From Chloroflexota bacterium (GTDB taxonomy: Bacteria; Chloroflexota; Anaerolineae; UBA1429): 64,000 nucleotides of DNA. This document shows positions 4,373-39,716 of the stretch, piece after piece (positions within the stretch are counted from its first letter, which is position 1; every line of letters begins with the position of its first letter). The position numbers and the translations under genes are program-made. The notes below the pieces were generated by a model. It was not told the origin of the DNA. It made no database searches and saw only the letters and a program-made list of their open reading frames with translations. The stretch lies in NCBI GenBank assembly GCA_036803245.1, contig DAIRUQ010000002.1, positions 10,723-74,722 of the forward strand. The letters are read 5' to 3'.

Positions 4373-5500
4373 ATGCGAGCCTTCTGGGTCGTGCTCTTTT
4401 GGCTGTGCGCAGGCACCATCGCCTACGTCTACCTGGGCTATCCTGCCATCATGGCGCTCTGGGCCAAGCTGCGCCCGCGGCGCTACACCCAGGACGATCA
4501 TCGCCCCTCGCTGACCGTAATCATCGCAGCGCACAATGAGGCCGCCTGCATCACCCAAAAGCTCCAGAACACCCTGTCTTTGGCCTATCCTGCGGACAAG
4601 CTCCGCGTGATCGTCGTCGCCGACGGCTCGGACGACGGCACCGAGCAACTGGCCGAGCGCGGGCGCGATCCACGCGTCCAGGTCCTCTATCAGCCAGAAC
4701 GCCAGGGCAAAGCGGCCGCCCTCTCGCGGGCCGTCGCGGCTGCCTCTAGCGAGCTGCTGATATTCACCGACGCCAACGCCATGCTGGCTCCCGATGCGCT
4801 CAAGTCGTTGGTCCGCCCCTTGGCCGATCCGCACATCGCGGCCGTGGGCGGTGCCAAGCGCACACCGCAAGGCGGCGAGGGCCTCTATTGGCGCTACGAG
4901 AACGCCCTGAAACGCTGGGAAAGCGCCGTGGGCTCGGTGATGGGCGTGCCTGGCGAGCTGTGGGCGGTGCGCGCCAGCCTGTATCAGCCGCCTCCGTCGG
5001 ACACCATCCTCGATGACTGGACGGCCAGCATGGGACTGGTGGCGCAAGGCTGGCGCGTGGTACACGCTCCCGAGGCCATCGCGTACGAGGAGCCGCCCAC
5101 CAATCTGCGGGCGGCGTGGGAGCGCCGCGCTCGCAACGCAGCGGGGGGCTGGCAGGCTATCGTCCGCCTCGGCGGTCCCGCTCGCTATGCCGATCTGCTG
5201 GCGTGGTGGCAGTGCTTTTCGCATCGCATCCTGCGATGGATGGTAGTGCCGTGGCTTTGGTTGCCGTTCTTGGTGGCCAGCATCGCCCTGGCGCGGCATC
5301 CGCTCTACCTGGCGGCCGCTTTGGCCCAATGGATCCTGTACGACGTGGCGGTCATGGGCGCGATCCTGGCCGTCTATGACAAAACGGTGCCGTGGCTAAC
5401 GGCACCGTTCTACCTGCTCTTTGGGAATACCGCCGCCGCTGCGGGCGGATGGCGCTACCTCACAAGAAAGCAGACCGTGCTCTGGCGCAAGGCCCGCTAA
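4373..5500 (+). CDS. Family 2 glycosyltransferase, membrane-embedded, with N- and C-terminal transmembrane segments
   Basis: N-terminal TM helix, then SLTVIIAAHNEA...VIVVADGSDDGT (GT2 DXD region), then C-terminal hydrophobic helices. Confidence 0.8.
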   Translation: MRAFWVVLFWLCAGTIAYVYLGYPAIMALWAKLRPRRYTQDDHRPSLTVIIAAHNEAACITQKLQNTLSLAYPADKLRVIVVADGSDDGTEQLAERGRDPRVQVLYQPERQGKAAALSRAVAAASSELLIFTDANAMLAPDALKSLVRPLADPHIAAVGGAKRTPQGGEGLYWRYENALKRWESAVGSVMGVPGELWAVRASLYQPPPSDTILDDWTASMGLVAQGWRVVHAPEAIAYEEPPTNLRAAWERRARNAAGGWQAIVRLGGPARYADLLAWWQCFSHRILRWMVVPWLWLPFLVASIALARHPLYLAAALAQWILYDVAVMGAILAVYDKTVPWLTAPFYLLFGNTAAAAGGWRYLTRKQTVLWRKAR

Positions 5501-5507
5501 CGCCCGC

Positions 5508-6536
5508 CTACCCGCGCGAGAGCACCTCTCTACCCCCATACAGGCGATCATAGTAGCTGCGATAGTGCTCGCCCGACGTGATGGGACGCCACCACCATTC
5601 GTTATCGGCGTACCAGCGAACCGTCTTGGTAATGGCCTCGTCAAAGCTGTGACGCGACCGCCACCCCAACGCCTGCACCTTGGACACATCCAGCGCATAG
5701 CGACGGTCATGACCAGGTCGATCGGTGACCCACTGGAGCAGGCTCTCGGGCTTGTCCAGCAGCCGCAGGATCGCCCGCGCCATCACAATGTTCTGGGTAG
5801 AGATCCCCGTCCCCAGGTTATAGATCTCGCCGATCTCTCCCTTGATCAGCACGGTGTCGATCCCCTCGCAGTGATCAACCACGTACTGATAGTCGCGCAT
5901 CTGCATGCCGTCGCCATAGATGGGCAGCGGCTTGTCATCGATGGCGTTGGTGACAAACAGCGGCACCACCTTTTCGGGGTACTGGTACGGCCCGATGTTG
6001 TTAGAGCCGCGCGTGATGGTCACGGGCAGGCCAAAGCTGGCGTGGTAGGCCAACACCATCAGGTCGCCACCCGCCTTGCTGGCGGAATACGGGCTGCGCG
6101 CCTCCAGCGGATCAGTCTCCACCGAGGCGCCCTCCAGCACCTGGCCATAGACCTCATCGGTGCTCACCTGGTGGTACCGCTGCACGCCCAACTCCTTGGC
6201 GGCCTCCAGCAGCACCCAGGTGCCGCGCACGTCGGTCTCCACAAAGCTGCCAGCATCGGTCAACGATCGATCCACGTGCGTTTCGGCAGCAAAGTTCACC
6301 ACCGTGTCGATGGCATGCTCACGCATGGTCGCCCGCACCAGGTCCGCGTCGCAGATGTCGCCCCTGACAAAGGCATAGCGGGGATCGTCGGCCACGTCCT
6401 TGAGGTTGTCCAGATTGCCCGCATAGGTCAGCTTGTCATAGACCACTACCCGATCGTCGGGATGGGTGGAGAGCACATACCTCACAAAGTTGGAGCCGAT
6501 AAAACCCGCGCCCCCCGTCACCAGCAGCTTGCGCAT
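5508..6536 (-). CDS. rfbB: dTDP-glucose 4,6-dehydratase
   Basis: 342 aa. MRKLLVTGGAGFIGSNFV Rossmann motif, the YxxxK catalytic motif and overall RmlB-like features. Its start abuts the stop of the upstream radical SAM gene (cat-tca at 6534-6539). Confidence 0.9.
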   Translation of the reverse strand: MRKLLVTGGAGFIGSNFVRYVLSTHPDDRVVVYDKLTYAGNLDNLKDVADDPRYAFVRGDICDADLVRATMREHAIDTVVNFAAETHVDRSLTDAGSFVETDVRGTWVLLEAAKELGVQRYHQVSTDEVYGQVLEGASVETDPLEARSPYSASKAGGDLMVLAYHASFGLPVTITRGSNNIGPYQYPEKVVPLFVTNAIDDKPLPIYGDGMQMRDYQYVVDHCEGIDTVLIKGEIGEIYNLGTGISTQNIVMARAILRLLDKPESLLQWVTDRPGHDRRYALDVSKVQALGWRSRHSFDEAITKTVRWYADNEWWWRPITSGEHYRSYYDRLYGGREVLSRG

Positions 6537-7949
6537 TCAGTGCCCTCCTTTGGCCAGTGCCGTTCGCCGCGTCAGCAGCTCCCAGGCCTTTTCCACAGCT
6601 CGCTTGGGGCGAGCATAGCGACGCCAGAACCGCCCCACCGATCGTCTCGCCTGGTTCCAGGTCGTCCTTCGTTGCGAATCCTCCAACGCCTCGGCCAGCC
6701 ACGCATAGTCGATGCCCTTGATCTTGGCCTCGTCGGGATTGCGGCGATAGCTATCGTGGTCGCGAATCAGCGACAGACCGCGCTCCACGCAATAGTCATA
6801 CAGGTCGCTGCCGGGATGCGGCGTGTAAAAGGCCGGCGAGTAATAATCCGGATCGATGCGCTTGAGCATCGAGACCGTCTCCAGCACCTCGGCCTTGGTC
6901 TCCGTTGGCAGGCCGAGCATATAGTTGGCCCAGATGGCGATGCCATAGCGCTTGCAGATCCGTGCCGCCTCGAGGTTCTGGGCACGGGTGGTGCCCTTGC
7001 GAATGAACCGCAACACCCGATCGCTGCCGCTCTCAAAGCCGATAAAGTAGCCCCGCAGGCCCGTCTCGGCCATCAGCGCCACCATATCCTCGTTCTTGAC
7101 GATGATATCCGCTCGACTCTGACAAAAGAACGGCTGAGTGAACCCCGCGTCCGAGTAGGCTCGGCAGAAGGCCTCGACCCAGTCACGATCCTCGGTGAGG
7201 CAGTCGTCGTGGAACATCAGGCTGTTGAACTGGTAGGCATCGCGCAGCATCTCGAGCTCGGCCATGATGTTGGACACGCTGCGCCGACGCACCTTGCGCC
7301 CAAAGACCCACCGCTCGGCCGGCTGGCAGTAGCTGCAGTTGTAGATGCAGCCGCGCCCAGCGATGACGGTGACAAAGGGGCCGGGTAGCTCCTCAGCAAA
7401 GGGCGCCTCGGGTGAATCGGTGGCAAAGCCCTGCCGCCGCCACTCGTCCAGGAACAGGTCCCTATCCGCAAAAGGAAGCCCGTCCAGGTCAGGATGGCTC
7501 CCCGGCAGCAGGCGCGGCACCGCCTCGCCGCGTTCCAGCGCATCCAGGGCTTGCACAAAGGTCTCCTCAGCCTCCCCCAAGAAGACGTGATCGATCAGGG
7601 GGCTATCGACCATCTCTTGTGGCTGGATACTGACATGGGCGCCGCCGACCATGGTGACGATGCTTGGATCGATCTCGCGAACGATCTCCAGCGCCTGTAT
7701 GGCGGGGTTATAGTCCACGCTCATGATGGTGACGGCCACGACCTGCGGCTGACGCTGGATCAACTCCTCGCGCAGGTGCTGCCAGCCGCGCAGCGCCCGC
7801 AGGTCCAGCAGATCCACCTCGTGGCCCGCCCGCTTGGCGCACGCGCTCAGGATCGCCAGGCCGTGGCTGATCCAGCCCGAATCCATGCCCTGGCCGATGC
7901 TGGCCCAACCCTTGCCGATGATGCCCGGGTAGAGCAACGATACCCTCAT
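6537..7949 (-). CDS. B12-binding-domain radical SAM protein
   Basis: 470 aa. N-terminal cobalamin-binding-like Rossmann region (VVAVTIMSVDY...MVGGAHVS). CIYNCSYC matches the CxxxCxxC 4Fe-4S/SAM motif. AAGGAGCGGGG RBS upstream of the start. Confidence 0.8.
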   Translation of the reverse strand: MRVSLLYPGIIGKGWASIGQGMDSGWISHGLAILSACAKRAGHEVDLLDLRALRGWQHLREELIQRQPQVVAVTIMSVDYNPAIQALEIVREIDPSIVTMVGGAHVSIQPQEMVDSPLIDHVFLGEAEETFVQALDALERGEAVPRLLPGSHPDLDGLPFADRDLFLDEWRRQGFATDSPEAPFAEELPGPFVTVIAGRGCIYNCSYCQPAERWVFGRKVRRRSVSNIMAELEMLRDAYQFNSLMFHDDCLTEDRDWVEAFCRAYSDAGFTQPFFCQSRADIIVKNEDMVALMAETGLRGYFIGFESGSDRVLRFIRKGTTRAQNLEAARICKRYGIAIWANYMLGLPTETKAEVLETVSMLKRIDPDYYSPAFYTPHPGSDLYDYCVERGLSLIRDHDSYRRNPDEAKIKGIDYAWLAEALEDSQRRTTWNQARRSVGRFWRRYARPKRAVEKAWELLTRRTALAKGGH

Positions 7950-17351: not shown

Positions 17352-18197
17352 CTAGGCCACCATGGCCGCCGCCATCACCCCGGGGCCAGCATGCGCCGAG
17401 AGCGCCGGACCAGCTTCGACCACCAGCGTCTCTGAGAGGGCCACCCCCACCTGGGGCGCCAGGGCCTCGGCCCAAGCGGCCGCCTCATCGGTTCGCCGGG
17501 TGTGCGCCACGGCCAGCATCCGGGCCGGCGCCAACCCAACGAACTCTTCGGTGATCTTGCGCACCGCCTTGGTCATTGACCTGGCCACACCCGTTACCTG
17601 GAGTTCGCCACCAGAGACGCGCAGCAAAGGCTTGATGTTCAGAGCCCTGGCCACACGGTCAAGAATGGGCATGACCTTGCCCGCGCGACCACCGCGCTTG
17701 AGGAACTCGACCGTATCCAGCGCGATTATCATGTGGCTGCGGGCACGGATCCCCTCCAGCCTAGCGATGATCGCGTCCACGCTCAATCCCTCTTTGGCCG
17801 CTCTGGCCGCCGCCAGCACCTGGAAAGCCTGCCCCGCCGACAGTGATTCGGTGTCAAACACGGTGACCTTGCCGAGGAATCGCTGCGCAGCTGCGTGGGC
17901 AGCGTTACAGGTGCCGCTCAGACGCCCCGTGATCAGCGGGCAAAGAACACGGTGCCCAGCCGCCACCAGGGGCGCAAACGCCTCCTCAAACATGCCCGCC
18001 GACGGCTGCGATGTCTCAGGAACGCCGTGCCCGGCCGAGACCCGCTGCCAGAACGCATCCGGAGCAAGGGTGCCATCATCCAGGATGACGTCGCTGCCGA
18101 ACCTGACGATCAATGGCACCACCGTGATCCCATGTTCGCGCTGCTGATCGGGCGTCAGGTCAGCCCCTCGGTCGGTGACGATGACTACCTGGCTCAT
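17352..18197 (-). CDS. DegV-family fatty-acid-binding protein
   Basis: MSQVVIVTDRGADLTPDQQREHGITVVPLIVRFG matches the DegV N-terminal pattern (DSxxDL...VVPL). 281 aa. Confidence 0.8.
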   Translation of the reverse strand: MSQVVIVTDRGADLTPDQQREHGITVVPLIVRFGSDVILDDGTLAPDAFWQRVSAGHGVPETSQPSAGMFEEAFAPLVAAGHRVLCPLITGRLSGTCNAAHAAAQRFLGKVTVFDTESLSAGQAFQVLAAARAAKEGLSVDAIIARLEGIRARSHMIIALDTVEFLKRGGRAGKVMPILDRVARALNIKPLLRVSGGELQVTGVARSMTKAVRKITEEFVGLAPARMLAVAHTRRTDEAAAWAEALAPQVGVALSETLVVEAGPALSAHAGPGVMAAAMVA

Positions 18198-18237: not shown

Positions 18238-19416
18238 TCAGCCACGCTGAACCGAGATCTGTGGGGGATGGACAAAGTCCTGGTAGCGCTCCGACAGGCT
18301 AGCCGCGTCGGCATCGCCCGTGTGCACCGCCACGCGCCAGCGCCAGCCCAAGCTCTGGCCCGCCGGCACGACGAGGTCGGCACGTTGCGCGGTATCCCCG
18401 GTAAAGTCATGCAACCCAAAGCAGTTGGCCGTCATCAAGCCATAGTTGCGCACATGCCAGTAGGTCGGATAGCGAGGGTTCTCCATGTGATCCATGAAAC
18501 AGATCCCGCGCCAGCCCGCAGCCGTGGGGCCGGCATAGTCGCACCAGGAAGCTCTCTTTCCCCACGCCTCGTCTTCTAGCACGCTGCCGACGCTGTTCAC
18601 GAACCGGCCGTCCTCGGGCTCGCCGGTGGCGTCCAGGCAAGTTGCCACTCGCACCGAGATCAGCCCGCCCTCCTTGGTATCACCCAGGGTCACCTGACCC
18701 AGGGAGGCATGCAGGGTCACGGCATAGTCGACCAGGCGCAGGCCAGTGGGCGTCCGGTAGAACGTGAGCCGACGTGTCTCGGTCATGTTGGGCGTACCTT
18801 GGGCGTCGACCCAATCCAGCTCCTCTGTGAACCCGCCCGCCACCGGGCCACTGAACAGCCGCGTAAACGCGCGGTGGATCTGCCGGCCGTGGCCGGGCTC
18901 CTCGCTCCAGTTGTCGACACCATTGACGCTGCCGTGTGCCGTATAGATGCCCTTGTGGTGTGGATGGTCTCTGCTATCGCCCGGCGCATCGGGAACCATG
19001 GGCCAGTCTCGCGTGATGCCGACACCCCCCTCGGCCAGCACTGGATAGAGGTAGGGACGCACAACGTCCTCGCCATGGTGATAGGTGGTGAAATGCTCGC
19101 CGTCGATCTCCACCTGCAGCGCACCTGGCCCCGCCTCGACCAGTTCCACGGCCCTCTGGTCACCCGCAGCTTCCGAGCGCTCCAGCAGCCGGTAGGCCGC
19201 CTTTTGATGCCGCTCCAGCGCCTCCACCGTCCACACCAGGCCCACGCTGCCATCGGTCTCACGCCAGGCTTGCACTGGCGCATCTGCGCCACTGCCGGCA
19301 TCGACCAGCGCTAGTCGACCCAGATCGACCTCGGCATCCAGCGCGATCCGCGTCGTCACCGGGCACCATTGCCGTCGATGCCACCCAGCCTCCACCCACA
19401 ACGTCGCCAGTTCCAT
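18238..19416 (-). CDS. PmoA-family (DUF6807-like) protein of unknown function
   Basis: 392 aa, no signal peptide. My recollection of this family (HHKGIY, WHVRNYGL regions) plus the frequent pairing with a xylose-isomerase-like TIM-barrel gene. The family assignment is tentative. Confidence 0.45.
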   Translation of the reverse strand: MELATLWVEAGWHRRQWCPVTTRIALDAEVDLGRLALVDAGSGADAPVQAWRETDGSVGLVWTVEALERHQKAAYRLLERSEAAGDQRAVELVEAGPGALQVEIDGEHFTTYHHGEDVVRPYLYPVLAEGGVGITRDWPMVPDAPGDSRDHPHHKGIYTAHGSVNGVDNWSEEPGHGRQIHRAFTRLFSGPVAGGFTEELDWVDAQGTPNMTETRRLTFYRTPTGLRLVDYAVTLHASLGQVTLGDTKEGGLISVRVATCLDATGEPEDGRFVNSVGSVLEDEAWGKRASWCDYAGPTAAGWRGICFMDHMENPRYPTYWHVRNYGLMTANCFGLHDFTGDTAQRADLVVPAGQSLGWRWRVAVHTGDADAASLSERYQDFVHPPQISVQRG

Positions 19417-19463
19417 CGGTTACTCCTTACCCTCTATCATCGTCAGCGATAGGACGTTCGAGC

Positions 19464-20303
19464 CTACGCCTGCTCTCCCAGATTTGGCTCGGCCCGGCGT
19501 AGATTGGCAATACTCTCGCGTGCGATAGCTTTGATGCCATAGCTCGCATCAAACGCCTCCACCGATACCCAGCCCGCATAGCTGATCTCTGCCAAAGCCG
19601 CCAGGACCGGACCGACGTCCACCGCGCCCATGCCCGGCCCCAGCAGGTTGGGATCATTAACGTGGACATGCCGGATCAGTTCCCCCACCGAGAGGATCTG
19701 GTGGTCCAGCGGTTGCGCCGCATACGACATGGCCTTGACGTCGACCATCATGGAAAAGCCAGGATGGTTCACCTCCCGCACCAGGCGAGCAGCCTCATCG
19801 ACGGTGGTGATGAAATCACACTCGGGAGGAGGCAACGCCTCGATACAAAAGGCCACGCCTCGCTCGAGAGCGCGTTCGCCACAGCGCCTCATGGCCTCTG
19901 CCGTATAGCTCCACGCCTGTTCTTGCGAGACCCCTGGCCCGGGGCTGCGCTGCGCCGGGGATCCCAGCACCAGCGCGTCACCGCCCAGGTCGGCACACAG
20001 GTCGATCTCGGCCAAAAGGTAGGCCACCGTCCGCTCGCGCGTCTCGGCGTCGGCTGCGTTCAGACCGAGACCCTCGGTGCGAGCGAGGAGCCAATGGAGG
20101 CCAGCGACAGTCAGGCCCTCGGACTCGATCTCGCGTCGGATGGCCGCCCTCTCAGCAGGCCCCAGCTCGTACACGCTGGACGTCAGTGTATAGGGCGCCA
20201 GCTCCAGGCCCGCGTAACCAAGCTCGCGACAGAACTGCGCCACTCGCTGCAGAGACCATCCCTCGAAGAGCTCATTGCAGATCGCATAGCGCCACGCAGG
20301 CAT
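19464..20303 (-). CDS. Sugar phosphate isomerase/epimerase (xylose isomerase-like TIM barrel)
   Basis: Start at MPAWRYAICNELF, preceded by GAGGGAGGGGAG RBS. AP-endonuclease-2/xylose-isomerase-like pattern (ICNELF...GYAGLEL...HVHVND). Confidence 0.75.
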   Translation of the reverse strand: MPAWRYAICNELFEGWSLQRVAQFCRELGYAGLELAPYTLTSSVYELGPAERAAIRREIESEGLTVAGLHWLLARTEGLGLNAADAETRERTVAYLLAEIDLCADLGGDALVLGSPAQRSPGPGVSQEQAWSYTAEAMRRCGERALERGVAFCIEALPPPECDFITTVDEAARLVREVNHPGFSMMVDVKAMSYAAQPLDHQILSVGELIRHVHVNDPNLLGPGMGAVDVGPVLAALAEISYAGWVSVEAFDASYGIKAIARESIANLRRAEPNLGEQA

Positions 20304-20413
20304 CTCCCCTCCCTCGGCCATCGCCGCCAGCACACCAGAATGGATAGCCACGTCGGGCGTCCCAGCCGACGGGCTCAGACCCCGCATCTGGCAACACGGC
20401 GCGCCATCCTCTC

Positions 20414-21352
20414 TCAAGGAGCTAGCTGCAATCGCAGCCCTACACCCGCCTCCACATAGTCATCGCCATAGGCCTCGGCAAAGAGGCGCCGAGCAAGATC
20501 GCCCGAGCAATGGGTCGGCGCCACCCGTCGCACCCCCAACCCGCGCAGATCCTCGATGATCGTCCCAATCCGCGTGGCCCCCTCGCCGCTCAGGTGAAAG
20601 CCGCCAATGACCAGGTCCACTGGCCCACCAGCCACCTGCTGCGCTTGGGCCACCATCTCCACAATCCCAGGATGCGCGCAGCCCGTGATCACCACCAGAC
20701 CGTCGGAGGTCTCTACCACCAGCGCATGTTCGGCGATAGAACGGCCCATCTCCCCCGTAGAATGGACGCCCGGGGCGATGGACACAGCCTCAGCCACCGC
20801 AACCACTTGCGCCTTGTCTCCCAAGAGTGCCGCGAGGCGAGATGCGAACGCCTGTGGCGCGTAGACAGAAACCCCATGGTTGCTCGCCAGGATGCCATCG
20901 AGCCCGCCCACATGGTCGCTATGGTTGTGCGACAGGATGATCGCATCCAGTCCGTCGGTATCAACGCCCAGGCCCTCCATATTCGCCAGGAGCGTCAAGG
21001 CATCAGCCCCGGTATCGAAGAGGATGCGCAGATCACCGCGCTCCAGAAGACAGGCGTACCCCCATCCCGTGCGAAGGCTTTCGTTGATAGCATAGTTATC
21101 GTACAGAATTGTAAGAGTCAACGGCTCCTCTGTGGGAGCAGGGCTGGGGGTGACGACCGCCGTGGCCGTCCTCGTCGCCGTCGCCGTCAGATAGGTCGTC
21201 GGCATTGGCGTGGGCGTTCCGGTCCGAGGCGCCAGGGTCGGCAACACCGATGGGCGAGCGACGCCAGCCGGCGCTCTCACCGGCGAGCCGAATGAGCAGC
21301 CGAGTAGCAGCGACGCTAGCCCGAGCAGCGCTAACTGGCCTGACCGCCCCAC
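20414..21352 (-). CDS. MBL-fold metallo-hydrolase lipoprotein
   Basis: HNHSDHVGG matches the HxHxDH metallo-beta-lactamase motif. Proposed GTG start at 21352, preceded by AAAAGGGGGG. It gives a lipoprotein signal (MGRSGQLALLGLASLLLGC, lipobox LLGC) followed by a Thr/Pro-rich linker. The longer in-frame ORF would overlap the sulfatase gene. Confidence 0.7.
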   Translation of the reverse strand: MGRSGQLALLGLASLLLGCSFGSPVRAPAGVARPSVLPTLAPRTGTPTPMPTTYLTATATRTATAVVTPSPAPTEEPLTLTILYDNYAINESLRTGWGYACLLERGDLRILFDTGADALTLLANMEGLGVDTDGLDAIILSHNHSDHVGGLDGILASNHGVSVYAPQAFASRLAALLGDKAQVVAVAEAVSIAPGVHSTGEMGRSIAEHALVVETSDGLVVITGCAHPGIVEMVAQAQQVAGGPVDLVIGGFHLSGEGATRIGTIIEDLRGLGVRRVAPTHCSGDLARRLFAEAYGDDYVEAGVGLRLQLAP

Positions 21353-21377
21353 TAGCCCCCCTTTTCTCGCGACGCGG

Positions 21378-22856
21378 CTAGCGCCCCGGGCGCGTTCGCC
21401 GGCTGGCCCGAATCTCTTCGAGGCGCGCATGCATCTCCTCGACCCGATCGCCCCGCTCGGTCGCGAGATTCCTGATTTGGGCCACATCCTGCGACAGATC
21501 ATAGAGCTGAGGTCCCGCAGCGTTGCCCAGCTCGATATGAGTGGTGGGGCTCACCGCCGGACCCGAATGCGGTGGGATGTAGGACCAAGTCCCCTGCCGC
21601 AGCACAGTCTTCCCTTGGGTCCCCTCGGTCACCAGCTCATGCCTCGCCTGTTCTGTATCGCCCAACAGCGCGGCCAGCAGTCTGATAGAGTCCGGCGCGG
21701 CGTCGTCCTCCAGGGAAACGCCGACCAGATCAGCGAACGACGCCAGGAAATCCACATGGCTGATCAACGCCGCACTGCGGCCCGGCGCCACCCGGCCTGG
21801 CCAGCGCAGGAGCATGGGAACCCGCGTGCCGCCGTCATACAGGCTGTACTTGCCCCCGCGCAACGGCCCCGCCGGCCGATGTGCACCGCAAAGCTCGACC
21901 GCCCCGTCGTCGTAGCCGTCATCAAGAACTGGTCCGTTGTCGCTCGAGTAGATCACCAGCGTATTCTCCGCCAGTCCGCTCACGTCCAGGGCGGCTAGCA
22001 GCTCGCCCACGCACCAGTCCATCTCGGCCAGAACGTCGCCGCGCGGCCCCAACTCGGTGCTCCCCGCGAACCGCTTCCCAGGGATGCGCGGCACGTGGGG
22101 CTGATGCAGGGCATAGTAGAGGAAAAAGGGCCCGCTACGCTGCTCTTGCACGAACGAGATAGCCTGCGAAAGAAAGACCTCGGCCATCTGATCGTCTTTC
22201 CAGAGCGCCGCGGCGCCACCACGCATGTAGCCGATGCGGCTCACCCCGTTCACGATCGCCATATCGTGACCATGGCTGTAGCGCATCGCCAAGAGCTCGG
22301 GGTTGTCGCGCCCCGTAGGCACGCCCGGGAAGGGCTTGTCCGGATCGTAACACACCTCGATGGGATCGTCAGGATCCAAACCAACCACCCGCCGCCCATC
22401 GACATAGACGCAAGGAACGCGGTCGTTGGTGGCCGCCATGATAAAGGAATGGTCAAACCCCACATCGAGGGGCGTGGGCGAGATCTCGGCGTTCCAGTCC
22501 AGGGCACCGTCGCCCAGGCCAAGGTGCCACTTGCCGACAATGCCGGTGTGGTACCCAGCCTGCTTTAGCATCGCTGGCAACGTCTGCGTCCCCGGCGCAA
22601 TGATCAGGGGAGCGTCTCCCGCCAGGATGGCCGCGTAAGGGTTTCGCCAAGGATACGATCCCGTCAGCAGACTGTAGCGCGAAGGGGTGCAGGTGGCCGC
22701 CGTCGCATAGCAGTGGGTAAAAAGCAGGCCCTGCTCCGCCAACCCGTCCAGGTGCGGTGTTGGGACGCCGGTGCCGCCATAGCAGCCGATATCGCCAAAC
22801 CCCACGTCGTCGGCATAGATGATCACGATGTTGGGTGGCGAGGATAGGGGGGCCAT
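21378..22856 (-). CDS. Sulfatase (arylsulfatase family, formylglycine-dependent)
   Basis: PNIVIIYADDVGFGDIGCYGG and CTPSRYSLLTGSYPWRN are the sulfatase signatures (C-x-P-x-R FGly motif). Start at MAPLSS with GAAGGAG RBS. No signal peptide is evident. Confidence 0.85.
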   Translation of the reverse strand: MAPLSSPPNIVIIYADDVGFGDIGCYGGTGVPTPHLDGLAEQGLLFTHCYATAATCTPSRYSLLTGSYPWRNPYAAILAGDAPLIIAPGTQTLPAMLKQAGYHTGIVGKWHLGLGDGALDWNAEISPTPLDVGFDHSFIMAATNDRVPCVYVDGRRVVGLDPDDPIEVCYDPDKPFPGVPTGRDNPELLAMRYSHGHDMAIVNGVSRIGYMRGGAAALWKDDQMAEVFLSQAISFVQEQRSGPFFLYYALHQPHVPRIPGKRFAGSTELGPRGDVLAEMDWCVGELLAALDVSGLAENTLVIYSSDNGPVLDDGYDDGAVELCGAHRPAGPLRGGKYSLYDGGTRVPMLLRWPGRVAPGRSAALISHVDFLASFADLVGVSLEDDAAPDSIRLLAALLGDTEQARHELVTEGTQGKTVLRQGTWSYIPPHSGPAVSPTTHIELGNAAGPQLYDLSQDVAQIRNLATERGDRVEEMHARLEEIRASRRTRPGR

Positions 22857-22964
22857 CGACCAGCTCCTTCTCTCTGCCTCGGCCCGTCTGGCCGAGACGC
22901 CTCTGGCAACGCGCTGCAACCTCATTCTACCGCTCGCACACGCGACGGCAAGGAGCGTCAGCCG

Positions 22965-24262
22965 CTAGATCAGGCGGATCGCTGTCTGGCGGCCATGGAT
23001 GACGCGGCAGCCGCTCTCCGTGTAGCAGACATCCTCCTCTTGGCCCAAGCGCACCACTTGGCCGCCCCACTCGGCGACCGGTCCCCCCACGGAGAGCTCC
23101 ATGGTAAAGGCATAGTTGCACTCGAGCGGCACATCGCCGCGCCCAGCGCAGTGCTCTTGTTCCCACGGCAAGCCGATCAGCGGCCCCGGCTCGTGCAGGT
23201 ACAGGCCCAGCGAATGCGAGTAGACCTTGGGCTGGGGGATTCCCTCACGCCTGGCCCGCGCCAAAATGCGACTCAGCAGCTCGTTCCCCGTCAGCCCCCG
23301 CGCGAACTCGCCCATGAAGACATCCTGCAGCCGAGTGCAGGCCCGCATTAGCGCGTCAAGTCCCTCGGGGGCGGCCGTCTCACCCGGCCGCAACACGTAC
23401 GCCGCTTGCTGATGGTCCGAGTTGAGCCGCAGGTAGCGCAGGCCTACATCGCAATGGAGGAGGTCGCCGGGGCGGATTACACCATCCTCCGTGCCGTGAA
23501 TCTCCTGGTCCGCCTGGCTGCGGATGATGCCGAAATGCGGCCGGAACGACACATCGAGCCCTAGGTCGGCACAGCGCTGCCAGTAGTGCCACACCAGGTC
23601 ATCGATGGTCGTCACGCCGGGAACGATGACGCGATGGCTGTAGCACTCGGCGATGATCGCCTTGGAAAGCCGCACGACGTGCTCAAAGAGCAGCAACTCA
23701 CGGTCGCTCAGGGTGGCCAACCAGCGAGTGACCAGCCTTTCCGCCGAGACCAGTCTCTCGCAGTAGGGCGACGGTAGCTGCTCACACAGCTGAAGATAGA
23801 GGTTGTGGGTCAAGCCGCCAGCCGCCCACTGAACGGCGCCGACGTTGATGCCGATGCGCTGGGGGTCACGCTCCGCGACGATCTCACGCAGCAACCGCCA
23901 CTGGTCGACCTCGACCTGTCCGCGGTAGGGCCAATCGTAGAGACCGCGGGTGTTGGTGCCTGACAGATTGATGCGTTCAACCCCTCGTTCCGGCCCGCGG
24001 TCAAAAAAGACCAGCATCTGCAAGATCGGGCACCAGGTATCCATAGGGATCAGGCTGGTAAACACGGGGTCGAGGTCATCCTCCTGGCACAACACGATCC
24101 ACATATCCAGGCCCGCCTCGCGCATGGCGACCGGCAGGACCTTGTCCAGCCGATCGCCCGTCACCTCCTGAATGATCTGACTCTGCTGCCGCACGGGCAT
24201 CACCCGGGGAAGGTTTCCCGGTTCGTGGTTGCCGTCGCTGGCGCTCGGTGTGCTGGTCATCA
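22965..24262 (-). CDS. M24-family metallopeptidase (Xaa-Pro aminopeptidase/creatinase-like)
   Basis: Start at MTSTPS with GAGGAG RBS. Pita-bread fold motifs (HCDVGLRY, YSHSLGLYLHEPGP, TMELSVGG). Confidence 0.75.
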
Positions 24263-24471
24263 GGCTGCTCCTCGTCTTGCGAGATACAAGTAAATCCTTG
24301 TGCTCAATTGTGACCGGGAACCGCCGAGGGCGCAAGCCCAGCCGTCGCCGACCCTACGTCTTGGCTCTACCGGCCAGGCGGTAACCGGGAGTGTCTCCTC
24401 CTCCGATTGACACGCCCGGAGATGGGCCTATGCTGAGTCTCGCCAATCACTGTCACCAAAGGAGGGCTATC

Positions 24472-27000
24472 ATGGGCGATAGCACGGGATCCAATAGAGG
24501 GCAGAAACCCACCGTACGCGCCACCCGTAGGCGGCGAACGACGGACAGCCAGGGCGCACCACGAGAGCGCGCGACCGCGCCTCGCAGGGAGGGCCGGCAG
24601 ACCCAGCGCACCACGTCTCAGCCAACGCCGGCCGGGAGCACCCAGAGCTCGGCTCCGCTTTCGGGCTTGGGCCAGCTGCTTCAGGGCGCCGCATCCTCAG
24701 GCGGAACGCGCCGTCCGCTGATGGGCCTTTCGCCCATCGTCATCATTCTGATCATCGTGTTCATCTGCGCAGCCCTGATCCTGTGCCGCTGCGGCGGCGG
24801 GTTGGGCGATCTGGCCGATCTCGGCCTGGGCATGGTCGATCAGGGCTCTGGCTCGCTGCTCCCTGAAGCGACGGTACCCTCCTCGCAGCCGACCGTCGCC
24901 CCCACCATCGCCAGCCAGCCGTTCGTGGTGCCGGCCGGTTCCGCCTCTGGCGACACCTGGCTAGTGATGCTCTACCAGGACGCTGACGACAAGATCCTGG
25001 AAAAGGACATCTACCTGGACCTCAACGAGGCCGAACGGGTCGGCTCGACTGAGAACGTGCGCATCGTGAGCCAGATCGACCGCTATAGCGGCGGCTATAC
25101 CGGCGATGGCAACTGGTCTAGCACGCGACGCTACTATCTGACGCAAGACCAGGATCTGACCCGTGTCGGCTCACAGCTCGTGGCCGATCTCGGCGAGCTC
25201 AACATGGCGGATCCAAACACCCTGATCGACTTTGTCACGTGGGCCGTGGAAACCTTTCCCTCGGACAAGTACGCGCTGATCATGTCGGACCACGGCATGG
25301 GCTGGCCCGGCGGCTGGACCGACCCCGATCCAGCGGTGCGCACGCAACCCAGCACGGCACTGGCCTCGGCGCTAGGCAATCAGCTCTACCTGGACGAGCT
25401 CGATGCTGCCCTGGCAGAGATCAGGCAACGCACCGGCATCGGCCAGTTCGAGCTGATCGGCATGGACGCCTGCCTGATGGCCCAGCTCGAGGTCTTTGCA
25501 GCATTGGCGCCTCACGCCCGCTACGCCGTCGGCTCGGAAGAGACCGAGCCCGCCCTGGGGTGGGCCTATACCAGCTTTCTGGGGGACTTGGCCGCCAACC
25601 CTGGCATGGACGGCGCCCAGCTCGGCCACCTGATCGTCGACAGCTATATCCGCGAGGATCAGCGGATCGTCGACGACCAAGAGCGAGCCGAACTGCTACG
25701 ACAGGGATCGCCCATGGGGGGACTCTTGGGCTTTAGCGTGCCCACGGTGGACCAGGTCGCTAGCCAGATGGAACGCGGCGTGACCTTGAGTGTGGTGGAT
25801 CTGGCCGAGGTGCCGGCGCTGGTGACCAGCGTCAACGACCTGTGCCTCACGCTGCAGGGGGCGGATCAGGCCAAGGTGGCTCAGGCCCGCAGCTATGCCC
25901 AATCGTTTACCAGCATCTTTGGTCAGCAGGTACCAGCGTCATTCATCGACCTGGGCAACTTTGTGGGGCTGCTCCAGCAGGCTCGCCTAGGTGGCACGGC
26001 CGACCAGGCCCTGGCCAACGTCTCGGGCGCGCTGCAGCGGGCCGTGATCGCCGAGACGCACGGTAGTGGCAAGCCCGGCGCCACGGGCGTCGCCGTCTAT
26101 TTCCCCAACTCGCAGCTCTATCGTACCGACGCCGCTGGTCCGGCCTCCTATGTCCCCATGGCCGACGCGCTCGCCCGGAGCTCGCTATGGGATGACTTTT
26201 TGGCCCATCACTATACAGGACGATCGTTCACAGCCGGATCTGTCGAGGCGGTGATCCCGGCCGAGAGCGAGGCTGTCACCGCTCCGGGCCAAGGCGACAG
26301 CTCGATCTCGCAGGTCCGGGCCTCGTCCTCGGTGGCCCGGCCTGGCGCACCGGTGCTGCTGAGCGCCGACATTGATGCCAGCAACTTGGGACATGTCCTG
26401 CTGTTTGCGGGCTACTATGACAGCGCTGCCAACTCGCTCTTTGTGATCGACATGGACTATCTCGAGAGCCCAAACACCCGCCAGGTCGACGGGGTCTACT
26501 ATCCCGTGTGGCCCGACGTCGAGTTCACGCTCGAGTTCGAATGGGAGCCTATCGTCTACTATATCGACGATGGCCAGGACTCTGTGTCGGCGCTCCTGAC
26601 GCCGCAAGACTATGGGGTCACCTTTGAGCAAGCGATCTACACGGTCGACGGCATCTATACGTTTGCCAGCGGCGAGACGCGAACAGCGCGACTCTATTTT
26701 GCCAATGGCAGACTACAGCGGGTGTTTGGCTTTACCGGCGATGGCACGGCAGGCGCGCCGCGTGAGATCCATCCAGAGACGGGCGACCGCTTTACCGTGG
26801 TGGAAGAGTGGCTCGATCTCGATGACCAAGGGCGCGTCATCGCGCAGGCGGTGCAGCAGGGTGGGACGCTGACCTTTGGCGATCAGATGTTCACCTGGGT
26901 CGAGCTGGACGCAGCCCCCGGCAACTATGTGGTTGGCTTTATCGCTCAGGACCTGGACGGGAACGCCAAGCAGGCCTTTACTCAGATCACCGTCCAGTGA
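24472..27000 (+). CDS. Clostripain-like (C11, clan CD) cysteine peptidase, membrane-anchored, with an Arg-rich disordered N-terminus
   Basis: ATG at 24472 with AAAGGAGGG RBS. N-terminal basic low-complexity stretch of about 80 aa, a single TM helix (IVIILIIVFICAALILC), then KYALIMSDHGMGWPGGW (His of the catalytic dyad) and ELIGMDACLMAQ (catalytic Cys) as in clostripain. A long C-terminal extension follows. Confidence 0.75.
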   Translation: MGDSTGSNRGQKPTVRATRRRRTTDSQGAPRERATAPRREGRQTQRTTSQPTPAGSTQSSAPLSGLGQLLQGAASSGGTRRPLMGLSPIVIILIIVFICAALILCRCGGGLGDLADLGLGMVDQGSGSLLPEATVPSSQPTVAPTIASQPFVVPAGSASGDTWLVMLYQDADDKILEKDIYLDLNEAERVGSTENVRIVSQIDRYSGGYTGDGNWSSTRRYYLTQDQDLTRVGSQLVADLGELNMADPNTLIDFVTWAVETFPSDKYALIMSDHGMGWPGGWTDPDPAVRTQPSTALASALGNQLYLDELDAALAEIRQRTGIGQFELIGMDACLMAQLEVFAALAPHARYAVGSEETEPALGWAYTSFLGDLAANPGMDGAQLGHLIVDSYIREDQRIVDDQERAELLRQGSPMGGLLGFSVPTVDQVASQMERGVTLSVVDLAEVPALVTSVNDLCLTLQGADQAKVAQARSYAQSFTSIFGQQVPASFIDLGNFVGLLQQARLGGTADQALANVSGALQRAVIAETHGSGKPGATGVAVYFPNSQLYRTDAAGPASYVPMADALARSSLWDDFLAHHYTGRSFTAGSVEAVIPAESEAVTAPGQGDSSISQVRASSSVARPGAPVLLSADIDASNLGHVLLFAGYYDSAANSLFVIDMDYLESPNTRQVDGVYYPVWPDVEFTLEFEWEPIVYYIDDGQDSVSALLTPQDYGVTFEQAIYTVDGIYTFASGETRTARLYFANGRLQRVFGFTGDGTAGAPREIHPETGDRFTVVEEWLDLDDQGRVIAQAVQQGGTLTFGDQMFTWVELDAAPGNYVVGFIAQDLDGNAKQAFTQITVQ

Positions 27001-34867: not shown

Positions 34868-35848
34868 ATGCTCAAGATCGCCGAAGTGCTGCCCCCGTAC
34901 CCAACCCCCTTGTGGCGGCTGGCCCGCCAGTGCGGCCTCACCCACGTGGTGGGCGGCATGGATTTTCGGCGGGGGCTGGATGTCGACGCCGAGGCCCTGC
35001 CCTGGAGCTATACCTCGCTGCTCCACGTCAAGACGCAGTACGAGGACGCCGGGTTCCGCCTCGAGGTGCTCGAGAGCCGTCCGCCCATGCACAAGGCCAA
35101 ACTGGGCTTGCCGGGCCGCGATGAGGAGATCGAGGCGGTGCGGACCCTGATCCGCAACATGGGCGCCTTGGGCATTCCGGTCTGGTGCTATGAATGGATG
35201 CCCGTCTTTAACTGGCTGCGAACCTCGCTGGCACTCCCCACGCGAGGCGGCGCCCTGACCACTGCCTATGACCACAGGCTGATGCAGAACGCACCGCTGA
35301 CAGAGTACGGCCAAGTGACCGAAGAGTCGCTCTGGGAGAACCTGGGATACTTTCTGGATGCCGTCATCCCGGTAGCTGAGGAGGCCGGCGTCAAGTTGGC
35401 CATGCATCCCGATGATCCGCCGCTATCGCCCATTCGCGGCCTCGGACGGATCATGCGCAGCATCGACAACTACCAACGGCTAGTCGATCGCTGGCCTAGT
35501 CCCGTCAATGGCATCGCCCTCTGCCAAGGCAACTTTGCCCTCATGACCGACGATCTCCCCGCCGTGATCCGCCGTTTCGGGTCTCAAGATCGCATCTTTT
35601 TCGTCCATCTCCGCGATGTGCGCGGCACCGCCGAATGCTTTGTGGAGACGTTTCACGACGACGGACAGACCGACCTGCTGGCCTGCCTGCGCGCCTACCG
35701 CGACGTCGGCTACGAGGGCGTGCTGCGCCCCGATCACGTGCCCACCATGGAGGGCGATAGCCACAACGACCCCGCCTATTCGACGGTGGGAAGGCTCTTT
35801 GCCGTAGGCTACATCAAGGGCCTTTGCCAAGCCGTCTATGCCGACTAG
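34868..35848 (+). CDS. uxuA: Mannonate dehydratase (UxuA family)
   Basis: 326 aa. Xylose-isomerase-like TIM-barrel dehydratase with HPDDPP and RPDHVP motifs, as recalled for the UxuA family. Confidence 0.65.
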
Positions 35849-35897
35849 GCCAGGCCACGACAACTAGAACGCGTCTCATCAAGCGGAGCACTTCTGT

Positions 35898-37271
35898 ATG
35901 ACCAACCGACCCTTTGAGTCTACCCTGGCCCATGTGAACACCTTTTCGCGCCCATCGCAGCTCTGTATCACAGACATGCGCCTAACCGACATCGTCGGCG
36001 CACCCATGCACTGCATCCTGCTCAAGATCGAGACCAACCAAGGCCTGACCGGCTTTGGCGAGGTCCGTGACGGCGCCGACCGCCTTTATGCCGAGATGCT
36101 CAAGAGCCGCCTTCTGGGTGAGAACCCCTGCGATGTGGATCGGCTCTTTCGCCGCATCAAGCAGTTCGGCGGGCACGGTCGGCAGGGCGGAGGCGTCAGC
36201 GGCGTCGAGGTAGCCTTGTGGGATCTGGCCGGCAAGGCATACGGCGTGCCCGTCTACCAGATGCTTGGCGGCAAGTTCCGCGACCGCGTGCGCCTCTACT
36301 GTGATACCGATGCCCGCGGTGACCGCTCAGCTCGCGCCATGGGAGAGGCCATCACTGAGCGCGTAGAACGCGGTTTCACCTTTGCCAAGATGGATGTCGG
36401 CACCAGCCTGGTTGCACGAGAACCAGGCGCCCTCAGCGCGCCGTTAGGCCACCTGGAGGAGCTGCGCCAGGCCGCAGCCGCTACCCGGCATGCCGCAGGC
36501 ATCACGCCTGAGGACACGCGCACGGCCCGCAACCGCTGGTATGACCTCAACAACGTGCCCCATCCGTTCTGCAGCGTCCATCTCACTGAAAAGGGGCTGG
36601 ACCTGCTGGAGCAGTACGTGGCCGAGGTCCGTGCTGCGGTAGGCTACGAGTTGCCCTTGGCGGTGGATCATCTGGGCCACATCGCCATCGAAGACTGCAT
36701 TCGACTGGCGCACCGACTGGAAAAGTACAACCTCGCCTGGATGGAGGATCCCGTCCCCTGGCAGTACACGGCCCAATATCAGCGCTTGACGCAAACGAGC
36801 ACCGTGCCCATCTGCACGGGCGAGGACATCTACCTCAAGGACGCCTTCCGACCCCTGCTGGAGGGCCAGGCTGTGGCGGTCATCCATCCCGACGTGCTCA
36901 CCGTGGGCGGCATTCTGGAGACGAAAAAGGTCGGCGACCTGGCCGAGGAGCATGGCATCGCCATGGCGATTCACATGGCCGAGAGCCCCATCGGCTGCAT
37001 GGCGGCGGTGCACGCCGCAGCCGCCACGGCCAACCTCCTGGCCGTCGAGTTCCATTCGGCCGACTGCCCTTGGTGGGAGGATCTGGTCACCGGTCTGCCC
37101 GCGCCGTTGATCCAGGCCGGACATATCACCCTACCCGATGAGCCGGGCTTGGGCATCGAGTCCCTGAACGATGATGTCATCGCCGAGCATCTCGATCCCG
37201 CCATGCCCGAGCTGTGGGCCAGCACCGAGCAGTGGGATCACCGCTGGTCGCATGATAGACTGTGGAGCTAG
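35898..37271 (+). CDS. Enolase-superfamily enzyme (mandelate racemase/muconate lactonizing enzyme; possibly ManD/GalD-type acid-sugar dehydratase) with a roughly 60-aa insertion
   Basis: N-terminal capping domain. KIETNQGLTGFGE...VEVALWDLAGKAYGVPVYQMLGG is typical of MR/MLE members. 457 aa, longer than the usual about 400. Confidence 0.75.
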   Translation: MTNRPFESTLAHVNTFSRPSQLCITDMRLTDIVGAPMHCILLKIETNQGLTGFGEVRDGADRLYAEMLKSRLLGENPCDVDRLFRRIKQFGGHGRQGGGVSGVEVALWDLAGKAYGVPVYQMLGGKFRDRVRLYCDTDARGDRSARAMGEAITERVERGFTFAKMDVGTSLVAREPGALSAPLGHLEELRQAAAATRHAAGITPEDTRTARNRWYDLNNVPHPFCSVHLTEKGLDLLEQYVAEVRAAVGYELPLAVDHLGHIAIEDCIRLAHRLEKYNLAWMEDPVPWQYTAQYQRLTQTSTVPICTGEDIYLKDAFRPLLEGQAVAVIHPDVLTVGGILETKKVGDLAEEHGIAMAIHMAESPIGCMAAVHAAAATANLLAVEFHSADCPWWEDLVTGLPAPLIQAGHITLPDEPGLGIESLNDDVIAEHLDPAMPELWASTEQWDHRWSHDRLWS

Positions 37272-37316
37272 GAAAGTAGCATCCGGATCCGCGATCCCCA
37301 TAGGAGGCCAAGCGCC

Positions 37317-38165
37317 ATGAAGTTCAGTTGCCGAGAGGATATCATCCAGCTAACGCCTTTGTGGACGGGCGAGCGTTTTGACGACGGCAGGCCCCGCGTC
37401 CCTGATGACATTGTCGAGCGGATGGTCTATGTCACCACCGAAGAGGCCTGGGGCGTGCTCTGGCGGCACGGGTTCCAGTACCAGTTCGAGGGCAACTGGC
37501 TCAACCTCCACCCCGACCAGGTGCTGGTGGGCCGCGCGGTGACGGGCGTCTTTGTGCCCAAGCGACCCGACCTCCACGATGGCCTGATGAAGTACGGCCA
37601 CGAGCAAGAGGGCCGCGTGGGAGAGATGAATTCCTGGGTGATCCAGACCCTGGTCAAGGACGATGTCATCGTCATCGACCTGTTCGGCAAGATCCGCAGC
37701 GGCACTTTTTCGGGAGGCAACCTCTCTACGGCCATCGCTGCCCGCACCCAGCGAGGACAGGTGATCTATGGCGGGATCCGCGACGCCCAACAGATCCTCC
37801 AGATCCCTGATTTCTGCACGTTCTGCCGCGGCATCGATCCCACCGGCATCGACGACGTGACGTTGGTAGGCATGAACGTGCCCTGTCGCATCGGCAACGC
37901 CACCTGCCTGCCCGGCGACATTGTCCTGGGCACCTACTCGGGCATTCTGTTCATCCCGCCCCATCTGGCCCAAGAGGTAGTCGAGCACTCGGAGACGATG
38001 CGCCTGCGTGAGGCCTTTGGCTTTACCCGGCTGCGCGAGGGAGTCTATACCTCCAGCCAGATGGATACTGCCTGGACCGACGAGATCGAGGCGGACTATG
38101 CCGGCTGGCTGGCCCAACGCACCGACGAGGAAAAGGCGCGCATCCTTTGGGAGGAGCGCAGCTAG
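37317..38165 (+). CDS. RraA-family protein (4-hydroxy-4-methyl-2-oxoglutarate aldolase / oxaloacetate decarboxylase-like)
   Basis: Core resembles RraA/MenG-like proteins (GDVIVID...GGNLSTAIAARTQRGQVIYGGIRD). 282 aa with an N-terminal extension. Confidence 0.55.
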   Translation: MKFSCREDIIQLTPLWTGERFDDGRPRVPDDIVERMVYVTTEEAWGVLWRHGFQYQFEGNWLNLHPDQVLVGRAVTGVFVPKRPDLHDGLMKYGHEQEGRVGEMNSWVIQTLVKDDVIVIDLFGKIRSGTFSGGNLSTAIAARTQRGQVIYGGIRDAQQILQIPDFCTFCRGIDPTGIDDVTLVGMNVPCRIGNATCLPGDIVLGTYSGILFIPPHLAQEVVEHSETMRLREAFGFTRLREGVYTSSQMDTAWTDEIEADYAGWLAQRTDEEKARILWEERS

Positions 38166-38276
38166 TAGAATCGAACAAGCCCACGAGGGGCGAGACCGCC
38201 CATGCGGCAGACCCAAGGGCGAGTTGGTTGATCGCATCGGTTCCTTTCGCTGATGGCACTTTGGTTAGGAGGAAAC

Positions 38277-39689: not shown

Positions 39690-39716
39690 CCGCCAACAGT
39701 AGCATTGGAGAGCATC

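Follow-up and report, generated by a model that had tools for sequence, protein, structure and literature searches.

A conserved gene pair of DUF6807 and a xylose-isomerase-like TIM barrel in Anaerolineae, with a tentative link to keto-sugar chemistry

Glycosides can be cleaved by a route in which Gfo/Idh/MocA enzymes oxidize the sugar at C3, "sugar phosphate isomerase" triosephosphate isomerase (TIM) barrels and DUF1080 proteins then carry out 1,2-elimination and hydration, after which a reductive step restores the sugar (bioRxiv 10.1101/2024.03.25.586180; PMC10628242). This non-Koshland cleavage via 3-keto intermediates was described recently, and its authors reported clusters without DUF1080 and predicted clusters of other architectures (bioRxiv 10.1101/2024.03.25.586180). 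Described clusters are AL/BT1-4 of Alistipes and Bacteroides (bioRxiv 10.1101/2024.03.25.586180), AtOGE/AtHYD of Agrobacterium (PMC10628242), and Lgd for levoglucosan (PMC7676230). Activity extends to 6-phospho and 6-sulfo glycosides, the 6-sulfated ones being cleaved slowly by a Gfo/TIM cluster, and 3-keto-glucose isomerizes unproductively to a furanose form (bioRxiv 10.1101/2024.03.25.586180). Here, we describe two adjacent genes, one for a DUF6807 ("PmoA family") protein and one for a xylose-isomerase-like TIM barrel, in a stretch of 64,000 nucleotides from a Chloroflexota bacterium of the Anaerolineae (contig DAIRUQ010000002.1, positions 10,723 to 74,722). We call that whole 64-kb stretch, which has a G+C content of 62-67%, the window. 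The pair is a genuine, conserved, and uncharacterized module.

DUF6807 is a component of no described oxidative cleavage cluster. Like those clusters, DUF6807 loci bring together Gfo/Idh/MocA enzymes and "sugar phosphate isomerase" TIM barrels, and either a TIM barrel or DUF1080, the family of the AL2/BT2 lyase/hydratase, is sometimes fused to DUF6807 itself. Unlike those clusters, the window lacks Gfo/Idh/MocA and DUF1080, the partner TIM barrel is epimerase-like, and the pair is cytoplasmic, whereas three AL proteins have signal peptides that suggest a periplasmic location. A second comparison is offered by YcjQRS of Escherichia coli, a guloside/glucoside interconversion system with YcjS as a Gfo/Idh/MocA protein and YcjR as a 3-keto-D-glucoside 4-epimerase. 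It resembles the context of the pair in combining Gfo/Idh/MocA with an epimerase-type, xylose-isomerase-like TIM barrel that acts on a 3-keto-glycoside. The ycj cluster differs in that it is not known to include a DUF6807 protein, no search of E. coli for one having been made.

The two genes of the window lie on the minus strand and are separated by 47 nt. The gene for the TIM barrel (19464..20303, 279 aa, PF01261) is the upstream member, and the gene for the DUF6807 protein (18238..19416, 392 aa, PF14100) begins with an ATG. A preliminary description of this DNA gave the spacing correctly but had the TIM gene following DUF6807, which is true only in plus-strand coordinates; on the coding strand, TIM is 5' and DUF6807 is 3'. 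The TIM open reading frame (ORF) spans 19464-20417 (-), with the ATG at 20303 inside it and GGAGG ahead of that ATG. A region of 110 nt (20304..20413, -), which contains this GGAGG ribosome-binding site, runs from the stop of the next gene upstream, encoding a metallo-β-lactamase (MBL)-fold protein, to the TIM ATG, and a scan of it found no sigma-70-like promoter. The spacer between the paired genes (19417..19463, -) carries AAGGAG 7 nt before the DUF6807 ATG, and a sequence scan found no terminator-like hairpin in it. Because the spacer has a ribosome-binding site and no terminator, the two genes are likely cotranscribed. Both genes are real. The DUF6807 protein has a homolog with 91% identity along with hundreds of full-length (~390-aa) relatives, chiefly from Chloroflexota metagenomes. 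The closest public relative of the locus, at ~90% nucleotide identity, is L008 (AnMBR.bin280), from an Anaerolineae metagenome-assembled genome of an anaerobic membrane bioreactor.

The 392-aa protein had been assigned tentatively to PF14100/DUF6807, and the assignment is secure (Pfam E value of 2.4e-69; 234.4 bits against a cutoff of 27). The match covers residues 100-377 and profile positions 2-268 of 270. The family is large, with 3,581 cluster representatives at 50% identity in an exhaustive search at E<=1e-3. Its family-wide motifs, DHPHH[KR]G, GDTKEG, and WHVRxYGL..AN, and its C-terminal histidine (H365) are all present in the window protein, with the motifs at residues 150-156 (DHPHHKG), 245-251 (GDTKEGG), and 320-331 (WHVRNYGLMTAN, W320-N331); H176 and H365 are further invariant residues. 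More than 50 positions are invariant among 41 homologs (alignment A1) and are concentrated in the three motifs. The polar motifs are also invariant in a divergent subfamily, in an alignment (A5) independent of A1. AlphaFold2 models were obtained for the full-length protein (predicted local distance difference test [pLDDT], 90.6; predicted template modeling score [pTM], 0.91) and for the domain alone (pLDDT, 88.3; pTM, 0.89). The model is all-β and soluble, without transmembrane helices, and consists of an N-terminal β-sandwich (approximately residues 1-113) and a larger galactose-mutarotase-like β-supersandwich. Its only low-confidence loop, residues 138-149, sits just ahead of DHPHHKG. The invariant residues look like a catalytic, possibly metal-binding sugar site.

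The cytoplasmic location proposed earlier for the DUF6807 protein is supported. Identity with particulate methane monooxygenase was rejected, as the preliminary description had held despite the PmoA name: PF14100 is the sole Pfam match, and the model is a soluble all-β protein, not a polytopic membrane protein. A legacy name is all that DUF6807 has in common with PmoA/AmoA. Foldseek returned fold-level likeness only, at template modeling (TM) scores of 0.54 or less, to galactose-mutarotase-like domains: polysaccharide lyase family 26 (PL26), accessory domains of glycoside hydrolase (GH) families GH38, GH2, and GH36, YidC P1, OpgG, GH174, and bona fide mutarotases. A sequence search of the PDB found nothing at E <= 1, and a profile search gave chance S7 matches only. 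Homology to aldose 1-epimerases was rejected at the sequence level, alignments A1 and A5 reaching an hhalign probability of 0.1% against a profile of GalM, YeaD, YphB, and YihR of E. coli. The searchable literature on DUF6807, PF14100, and the "PmoA family" holds incidental mentions only and no paper that assigns a function; likewise, and in line with the earlier statement, no published function was found for the pair.

The 279-aa partner matches AP_endonuc_2 (PF01261; Pfam E value of 3.6e-41; 142 bits against a cutoff of 31.1). Its putative metal ligands are E155, D188, H214, and E249, which correspond to the canonical metal site. Three of them (E155, D188, and E249) do not vary among 29 partner-TIM orthologs, which have either His or Gln at position 214 and also share E34, Q118, N216, and D217 without exception. 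A profile of the 29 orthologs (A4) is closest to TM0416/IolO of Thermotoga maritima (E value of 5.7e-41), followed by ketose 3-epimerases (1e-33 to 1e-28), the 3-keto-D-glucoside 4-epimerase YcjR (PDB 6wn6; 6e-26), and IolI (1e-22). TM0416/IolO and the ketose 3-epimerases (DTE/DPE) are thus the closest characterized relatives and have the Glu/Asp/His/Glu metal site in common with the partner, though its third ligand varies between His and Gln. At D188+2/+3 and at the invariant N216-D217, the partner may depart from the pattern of the free-ketose epimerases. The top NCBIfam match of the window protein is the 5-keto-L-gluconate epimerase IolO (NF041099; 96.9 bits against a cutoff of 300), and D-psicose 3-epimerase (NF051856) scores 61.5 bits against a cutoff of 300. 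No NCBIfam equivalog cutoff is reached, and the margin is wide. By its sequence, the TIM barrel is an epimerase-like family member of unassigned specificity.

The pairing is not peculiar to the window. We took a census of 85 nonredundant DUF6807 loci, 80 of them from one-genome-per-species GTDB contigs, and scored neighbors with family hidden Markov models (HMMs) built for the analysis. A TIM barrel occupied position -1 in 29 of 80 loci and position -2 in 14 of 76, against 6 of 491 at positions ±3 to ±6. An independent Pfam scan found AP_endonuc_2 in 28 of 79 upstream neighbors, and a single TIM BLAST cluster was present in 39 of the 85 loci. Across 39 pairs, the identities of TIM and DUF6807 covary (Pearson r = 0.83; permutation p = 0.001). 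The pair is present in 23 of 27 Chloroflexota genome loci. It was also found in Planctomycetota (including Brocadiaceae), where, as in Chloroflexota, it had been said to recur, and further in Armatimonadota, Latescibacterota, and Limnochordia, and in a Brockarchaeota locus a TIM gene adjoins DUF6807 on the opposite strand. Finally, natural fusions of AP_endonuc_2 with DUF6807 exist (P0174 and, from a second census described below, L158). Conservation of the pairing extends to at least five bacterial phyla. We conclude from its positional enrichment, covariation, phylum spread, and natural fusions that the pairing is real and that functional linkage of the two proteins is very likely.

Variants of the pair were also seen. 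In one Chloroflexota clade (L006, L007, L018-L020, L024, and L034), a PhyH-family (Fe/2-oxoglutarate dioxygenase-like) gene stands between TIM and DUF6807, and a GNAT acetyltransferase gene lies upstream of TIM. Full-length archaeal homologs of DUF6807, with ~43-44% identity, were found in Hadarchaeota (L029, L035, and L046), Bathyarchaeota (L022), and Brockarchaeota (L048).

The second most frequent partner of DUF6807 is Gfo/Idh/MocA, which was found in 22 of the 85 loci, with enrichment at positions -2 (12 of 76) and +1 (9 of 82). Several Anaerolineae carry a ~628-aa fusion of AP_endonuc_2 and Gfo/Idh/MocA, divergent from the pair (L001 at 4976-6862, L003 at 5150-7036, L012, L013, and L033). 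A DUF6807 homolog of Spirochaetales lies between two Gfo/Idh/MocA genes beside a sugar ATP-binding cassette (ABC) transporter, and the AP_endonuc_2 fusion P0174 is followed by a Gfo/Idh/MocA gene with a twin-arginine translocation (TAT) signal and by another TIM barrel. In two proteins, P0196 and P0199, DUF6807 is fused to PF06439 (DUF1080, "3-keto-disaccharide hydrolase"), which is present once or twice. A Gfo/Idh/MocA gene is directly downstream of P0199, and another follows P0239, a domain-only DUF6807 protein. An independent second census examined a divergent, shorter DUF6807 subfamily at 80 metagenome loci, with 143 immediate neighbors. Gfo/Idh/MocA again ranked first (9 of 143), ahead of amidase (7), AP_endonuc_2 (5), and KduI/IolB (4). 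DUF1080 adjoins DUF6807 in one locus of that census (L131) and lies two genes upstream in another (L148), and a custom HMM had no DUF1080 match in the 85 loci of the first census and the window. The partners and fusions of DUF6807 place the family in the chemical neighborhood of 3-keto-glycosides. We note separately that the amidase gene, of ~418 aa, recurs immediately upstream and on the opposite strand in the short subfamily (L107, L115, L121, L140, L143, and others).

Phosphatases also recur beside DUF6807. In a Chloroflexota clade (L021, L027, L033, L037, L038, L041, L049, L056, and L058), the operon-like gene order is Gfo/Idh/MocA on the opposite strand, then TIM, DUF6807, a second Gfo/Idh/MocA, and a ~490-aa PHP-domain phosphoesterase, all on one strand. 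Glycosyltransferases of family GT4 recur nearby on the opposite strand in the same clade. Three Hadarchaeota loci (L029, L035, and L046) have a calcineurin-like phosphoesterase at +1 and an enolase-superfamily gene nearby. A TIM-less monophyletic clade (Hydrogenedentota, Nitrospirota, and others) always has a ~450-aa protein of the inositol monophosphatase (IMPase) family at +1, in 18 loci (L031, L032, L039, L042, L045, L047, L054, L055, L063, L065, L066, L068, L069, L071, L074-L076, and L078), and in 6 loci glucose-6-phosphate dehydrogenase (G6PD) comes next. The IMPase-family protein has an unexplained N-terminal extension of ~140 aa, and its closest solved relatives are archaeal fructose-1,6-bisphosphatase (FBPase)/IMPases, in a weak match (E value of 2.5e-9). 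The preliminary description overlooked these informative partners, namely, Gfo/Idh/MocA, the DUF1080 and AP_endonuc_2 fusions, and the downstream phosphatases, which point to keto-sugar or sugar-phosphate chemistry.

The reading we favor, at somewhat less than even confidence, is that the pair encodes two cotranscribed cytoplasmic enzymes that work as one module on a carbonyl-activated (keto) sugar or glycoside. A Gfo/Idh/MocA dehydrogenase would first oxidize a sugar hydroxyl, typically at C3. The metal-dependent TIM barrel and the β-sandwich enzyme would then perform proton-transfer chemistry beside the carbonyl, whether epimerization, β-elimination, hydration, or ring isomerization, and a second reduction would follow. 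The TIM barrel would abstract the proton alpha to the keto group through its Glu/Asp/His/Glu metal site. Its outcome is most likely epimerization, judging from sequence, because the nearest characterized relatives are TM0416/IolO, the ketose 3-epimerases, and the 3-keto-glucoside 4-epimerase YcjR. DUF6807 would bind the same sugar in a pocket of invariant His, Asp, Glu, Lys, and Arg residues and catalyze a neighboring acid-base step. As our preferred guess, DUF6807 may stand in for DUF1080, as a 3-keto-glycoside eliminase or a 2-hydroxy-3-keto-glycal hydratase; alternatively, it may interconvert ring or anomeric forms of a keto-sugar. Neither a Gfo/Idh/MocA nor a DUF1080 gene occurs in the window, so in this genome the gene for the dehydrogenase would lie outside it.

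Taken further, DUF6807 could be an unrecognized catalytic family whose members depend on a metal or on His and serve as a 3-keto-sugar eliminase/hydratase or ring isomerase. It would complete pathways that lack DUF1080, with the TIM-DUF6807 pair as the minimal conserved core. That more specific proposal is doubtful. If it is true, pathways of oxidation, elimination or epimerization, and reduction of glycosides or sugar phosphates would be widespread in Chloroflexota, Planctomycetota, Hydrogenedentota, and Latescibacterota and even in Hadarchaeota and Brockarchaeota.

Several observations weigh against a keto-sugar module. The TIM partner is absent from 46 of the 85 loci, and the association of Gfo/Idh/MocA and TIM is weaker in the divergent subfamily (9 and 5 of 143 neighbors). 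Neither Pfam on 58 ORFs nor the custom HMMs found a Gfo/Idh/MocA or DUF1080 gene in the window, so the redox step is unobserved for this organism. The partner TIM is much closer to epimerases than to the known 3-keto-glycoside lyases: matches of profile A4 to 3-keto-glycoside lyase/C-deglycosidase structures are marginal (8qrz/8un2, E value of 2.4e-4; 7exz, 9.5e-4), and 8bvk was not among the structures listed. That the invariant residues of DUF6807 cluster in one pocket is an assumption, and literature and PDB searches found no biochemical, genetic, or structural datum for any DUF6807 protein. Moreover, the one monophyletic clade that lacks TIM and carries the IMPase-like phosphatase downstream, with or without G6PD, is not predicted by a 3-keto-glycoside model. 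The phosphatase and G6PD contexts are unexplained by this model and leave some probability to a sugar-phosphate or mutarotase reading and to an inositol reading.

The first of these takes DUF6807 for a mutarotase-like enzyme that opens the ring of a hexose phosphate or keto-sugar and converts one ring or anomeric form into another. Its products would go to anomer-specific neighbors such as G6PD, FBPase/IMPase-type phosphatases, Gfo dehydrogenases, and TIM epimerases. In its favor are G6PD after the IMPase-like gene in 6 loci, phosphatases of three unrelated families at +1 to +3 (IMPase-like in 18 loci, PHP in 9, and Metallophos in 3), and the unproductive isomerization of 3-keto-glucose to a furanose (bioRxiv 10.1101/2024.03.25.586180). 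The domain-only model, moreover, matched the fold of the galactose mutarotases of Bacillus subtilis and Lactococcus lactis and of the yeast hexose-6-phosphate mutarotase Ymr099c. GalM, YeaD, and Ymr099c are like DUF6807 in their β-supersandwich fold (Foldseek E values of 5e-5 to 6e-3; TM score of ~0.4) and in being stand-alone soluble sugar enzymes with His/Glu chemistry. They differ in their motif set, no sequence or profile similarity to DUF6807 is detectable, and the 390-aa DUF6807 subfamily has an extra N-terminal β-sandwich that aldose 1-epimerases lack. The fold matches are also weak, as TM scores were just 0.35-0.51 and noncatalytic supersandwich domains scored equally, while the profile-profile comparison with the aldose-1-epimerase family gave a probability of 0.1%. 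Finally, mutarotases do not need the six invariant histidines of DUF6807, and the window locus has no phosphatase or G6PD neighbor. We consider an anomerase unlikely.

The second supposes that the pair acts on inosose-type intermediates of cyclitol (inositol) metabolism. The TIM barrel would be an IolI/IolO/IolE-like isomerase, epimerase, or dehydratase, Gfo/Idh/MocA would be an IolG-like dehydrogenase, and inositol would come from the IMPase-like protein, with the step of DUF6807 left unspecified. IolO/TM0416 indeed leads the NCBIfam and PDB matches of the TIM barrel, and IolI matches too, but at 97 bits the IolO match falls far short of the cutoff of 300. Inositol-monophosphatase family neighbors occur in 18 loci, yet that clade is without a TIM partner altogether. 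KduI/IolB and DegT-type aminotransferase neighbors could be read as keto-sugar or inosose enzymes, but no inositol-phosphate synthase, IolC/D/J, or inositol transporter is among the recurrent neighbors. Some loci have glycoside-processing neighbors instead (GH2 β-mannosidase, a sugar ABC transporter, a heparinase-like protein, and AXE1). An inositol pathway is a distinctly unlikely setting for the pair.

DUF6807 might instead represent a new family of glycoside hydrolases or lyases, with the TIM barrel processing the sugar released. GH174 and OpgG set a precedent as supersandwich enzymes that stand alone, and Foldseek matched the PL26 lyase, the GH174 endo-fucanase, and OpgG; the likeness is at the level of fold only (TM score of 0.54 or less), however, and the domains matched are mostly accessory. 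One protein, P0266, joins DUF6807 to an esterase domain, and some members have carbohydrate-active enzymes as neighbors. The consistent partners, in contrast, are redox and isomerase enzymes rather than glycan-uptake systems, and the window protein is cytoplasmic. We give direct glycan cleavage by DUF6807 little probability.

The preliminary description proposed that the pair belongs to a locus for degradation of sulfated glycans or unusual sugars, together with a sulfatase and an MBL-fold lipoprotein. The genes it cited are where it placed them: Pfam identifies an MBL-fold protein (20414-21502), a sulfatase (21378-22925), and an M24 peptidase (22965-24335), all on the minus strand. The sulfatase is on the same strand upstream of the pair in the window, L008, and L009, and a published Gfo/TIM cluster slowly cleaves 6-sulfated glycosides (bioRxiv 10.1101/2024.03.25.586180). 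The arrangement, however, is not conserved. By tblastn synteny, the sulfatase ortholog adjoins the pair only in L008 (94% identity) and L009 (88%), and adjacency is confined to genomes with a DUF6807 ortholog that is at least 79% identical. A sulfatase was 1 of 81 immediate downstream neighbors of DUF6807. Five other loci have a sulfatase of a separate cluster near DUF6807, but chance could explain these, given the great abundance that we expect of sulfatases in Latescibacterota and Lentisphaerota. Tblastn found neither the MBL nor the M24 protein in any of 87 loci. Moreover, window positions 20528-21336, which hold the greater part of the MBL gene, form an 809-bp indel in comparison with L008 (~90% identical by blastn), and synteny between the window and L008 ends near 23108. 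Because the sulfatase, MBL, and M24 neighbors are not conserved, the sulfated-glycan role is unsupported, and we regard it as improbable.

Least probable of all is that DUF6807 serves the TIM enzyme as a noncatalytic subunit for sugar binding, chaperoning, or regulation. An accessory role is common among supersandwich domains, and the gene tightly adjoins TIM barrels and is sometimes fused to them, but DUF6807 keeps more than 50 invariant residues with dense His/Asp/Glu/Lys/Arg motifs across subfamilies and phyla, is without a TIM partner in 46 of 85 loci, and occurs in fusions with unrelated catalytic domains as well.

DUF6807 is a large family without an assigned function in many poorly cultured phyla and some Archaea. 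The new findings are that DUF6807 is linked systematically to Gfo/Idh/MocA, TIM, and DUF1080 modules as well as to phosphatases and that the sulfatase link is refuted as a conserved association. The pair, its fusions, and its Gfo/Idh/MocA neighbors provide a concrete candidate for a missing module and a short list of candidate substrates. If the keto-sugar reading is true, many "PmoA family" or "sugar phosphate isomerase" proteins could be reannotated, and predictions of carbon use would improve for Anaerolineae in anaerobic digesters.

The genes around the pair have features of their own. The minus-strand run continues downstream of DUF6807 with DegV (17352-18197), a 233-aa membrane or secreted protein without a Pfam match, Pth, and Mfd. 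DegV (fatty-acid-binding, FakB-like) is downstream of DUF6807 in 8 Anaerolineae loci, including L001, L003, L008-L010, L012, and L013, with 40-93% identity to that of the window. A functional link was set aside in favor of lineage synteny, which is probable because DegV is absent outside that Anaerolineae order. Upstream, the longest MBL ORF shares 125 nt with the 3' end of the sulfatase gene, and its lipobox-like LLLGC suggests an internal true start and a lipoprotein product. The sulfatase has a CTPSR formylglycine motif and no obvious signal peptide. Divergent from the M24 gene is an 869-aa C11 (clostripain-family) peptidase with a long low-complexity N-terminal region (24391-27000, +).

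Farther away, a sugar-acid catabolism cluster (34868-38165, +) encodes a UxuA-like mannonate dehydratase, an enolase-superfamily dehydratase, and an RraA-like aldolase and is followed by a formate/nitrite transporter (38253-39068). A second, unrelated AP_endonuc_2 TIM barrel (40505-41320, +) lies outside the BLAST cluster of the partner TIM barrels and is 21% identical to the TIM barrel of the pair. Its neighbors are an FAA-hydrolase-family gene and a 621-aa FAD_binding_2/fumarate-reductase-like flavoprotein, the ORF of which overlaps this TIM gene by 62 nt. The region that holds them (39705-43124, +) may be another keto-sugar or aromatic module.

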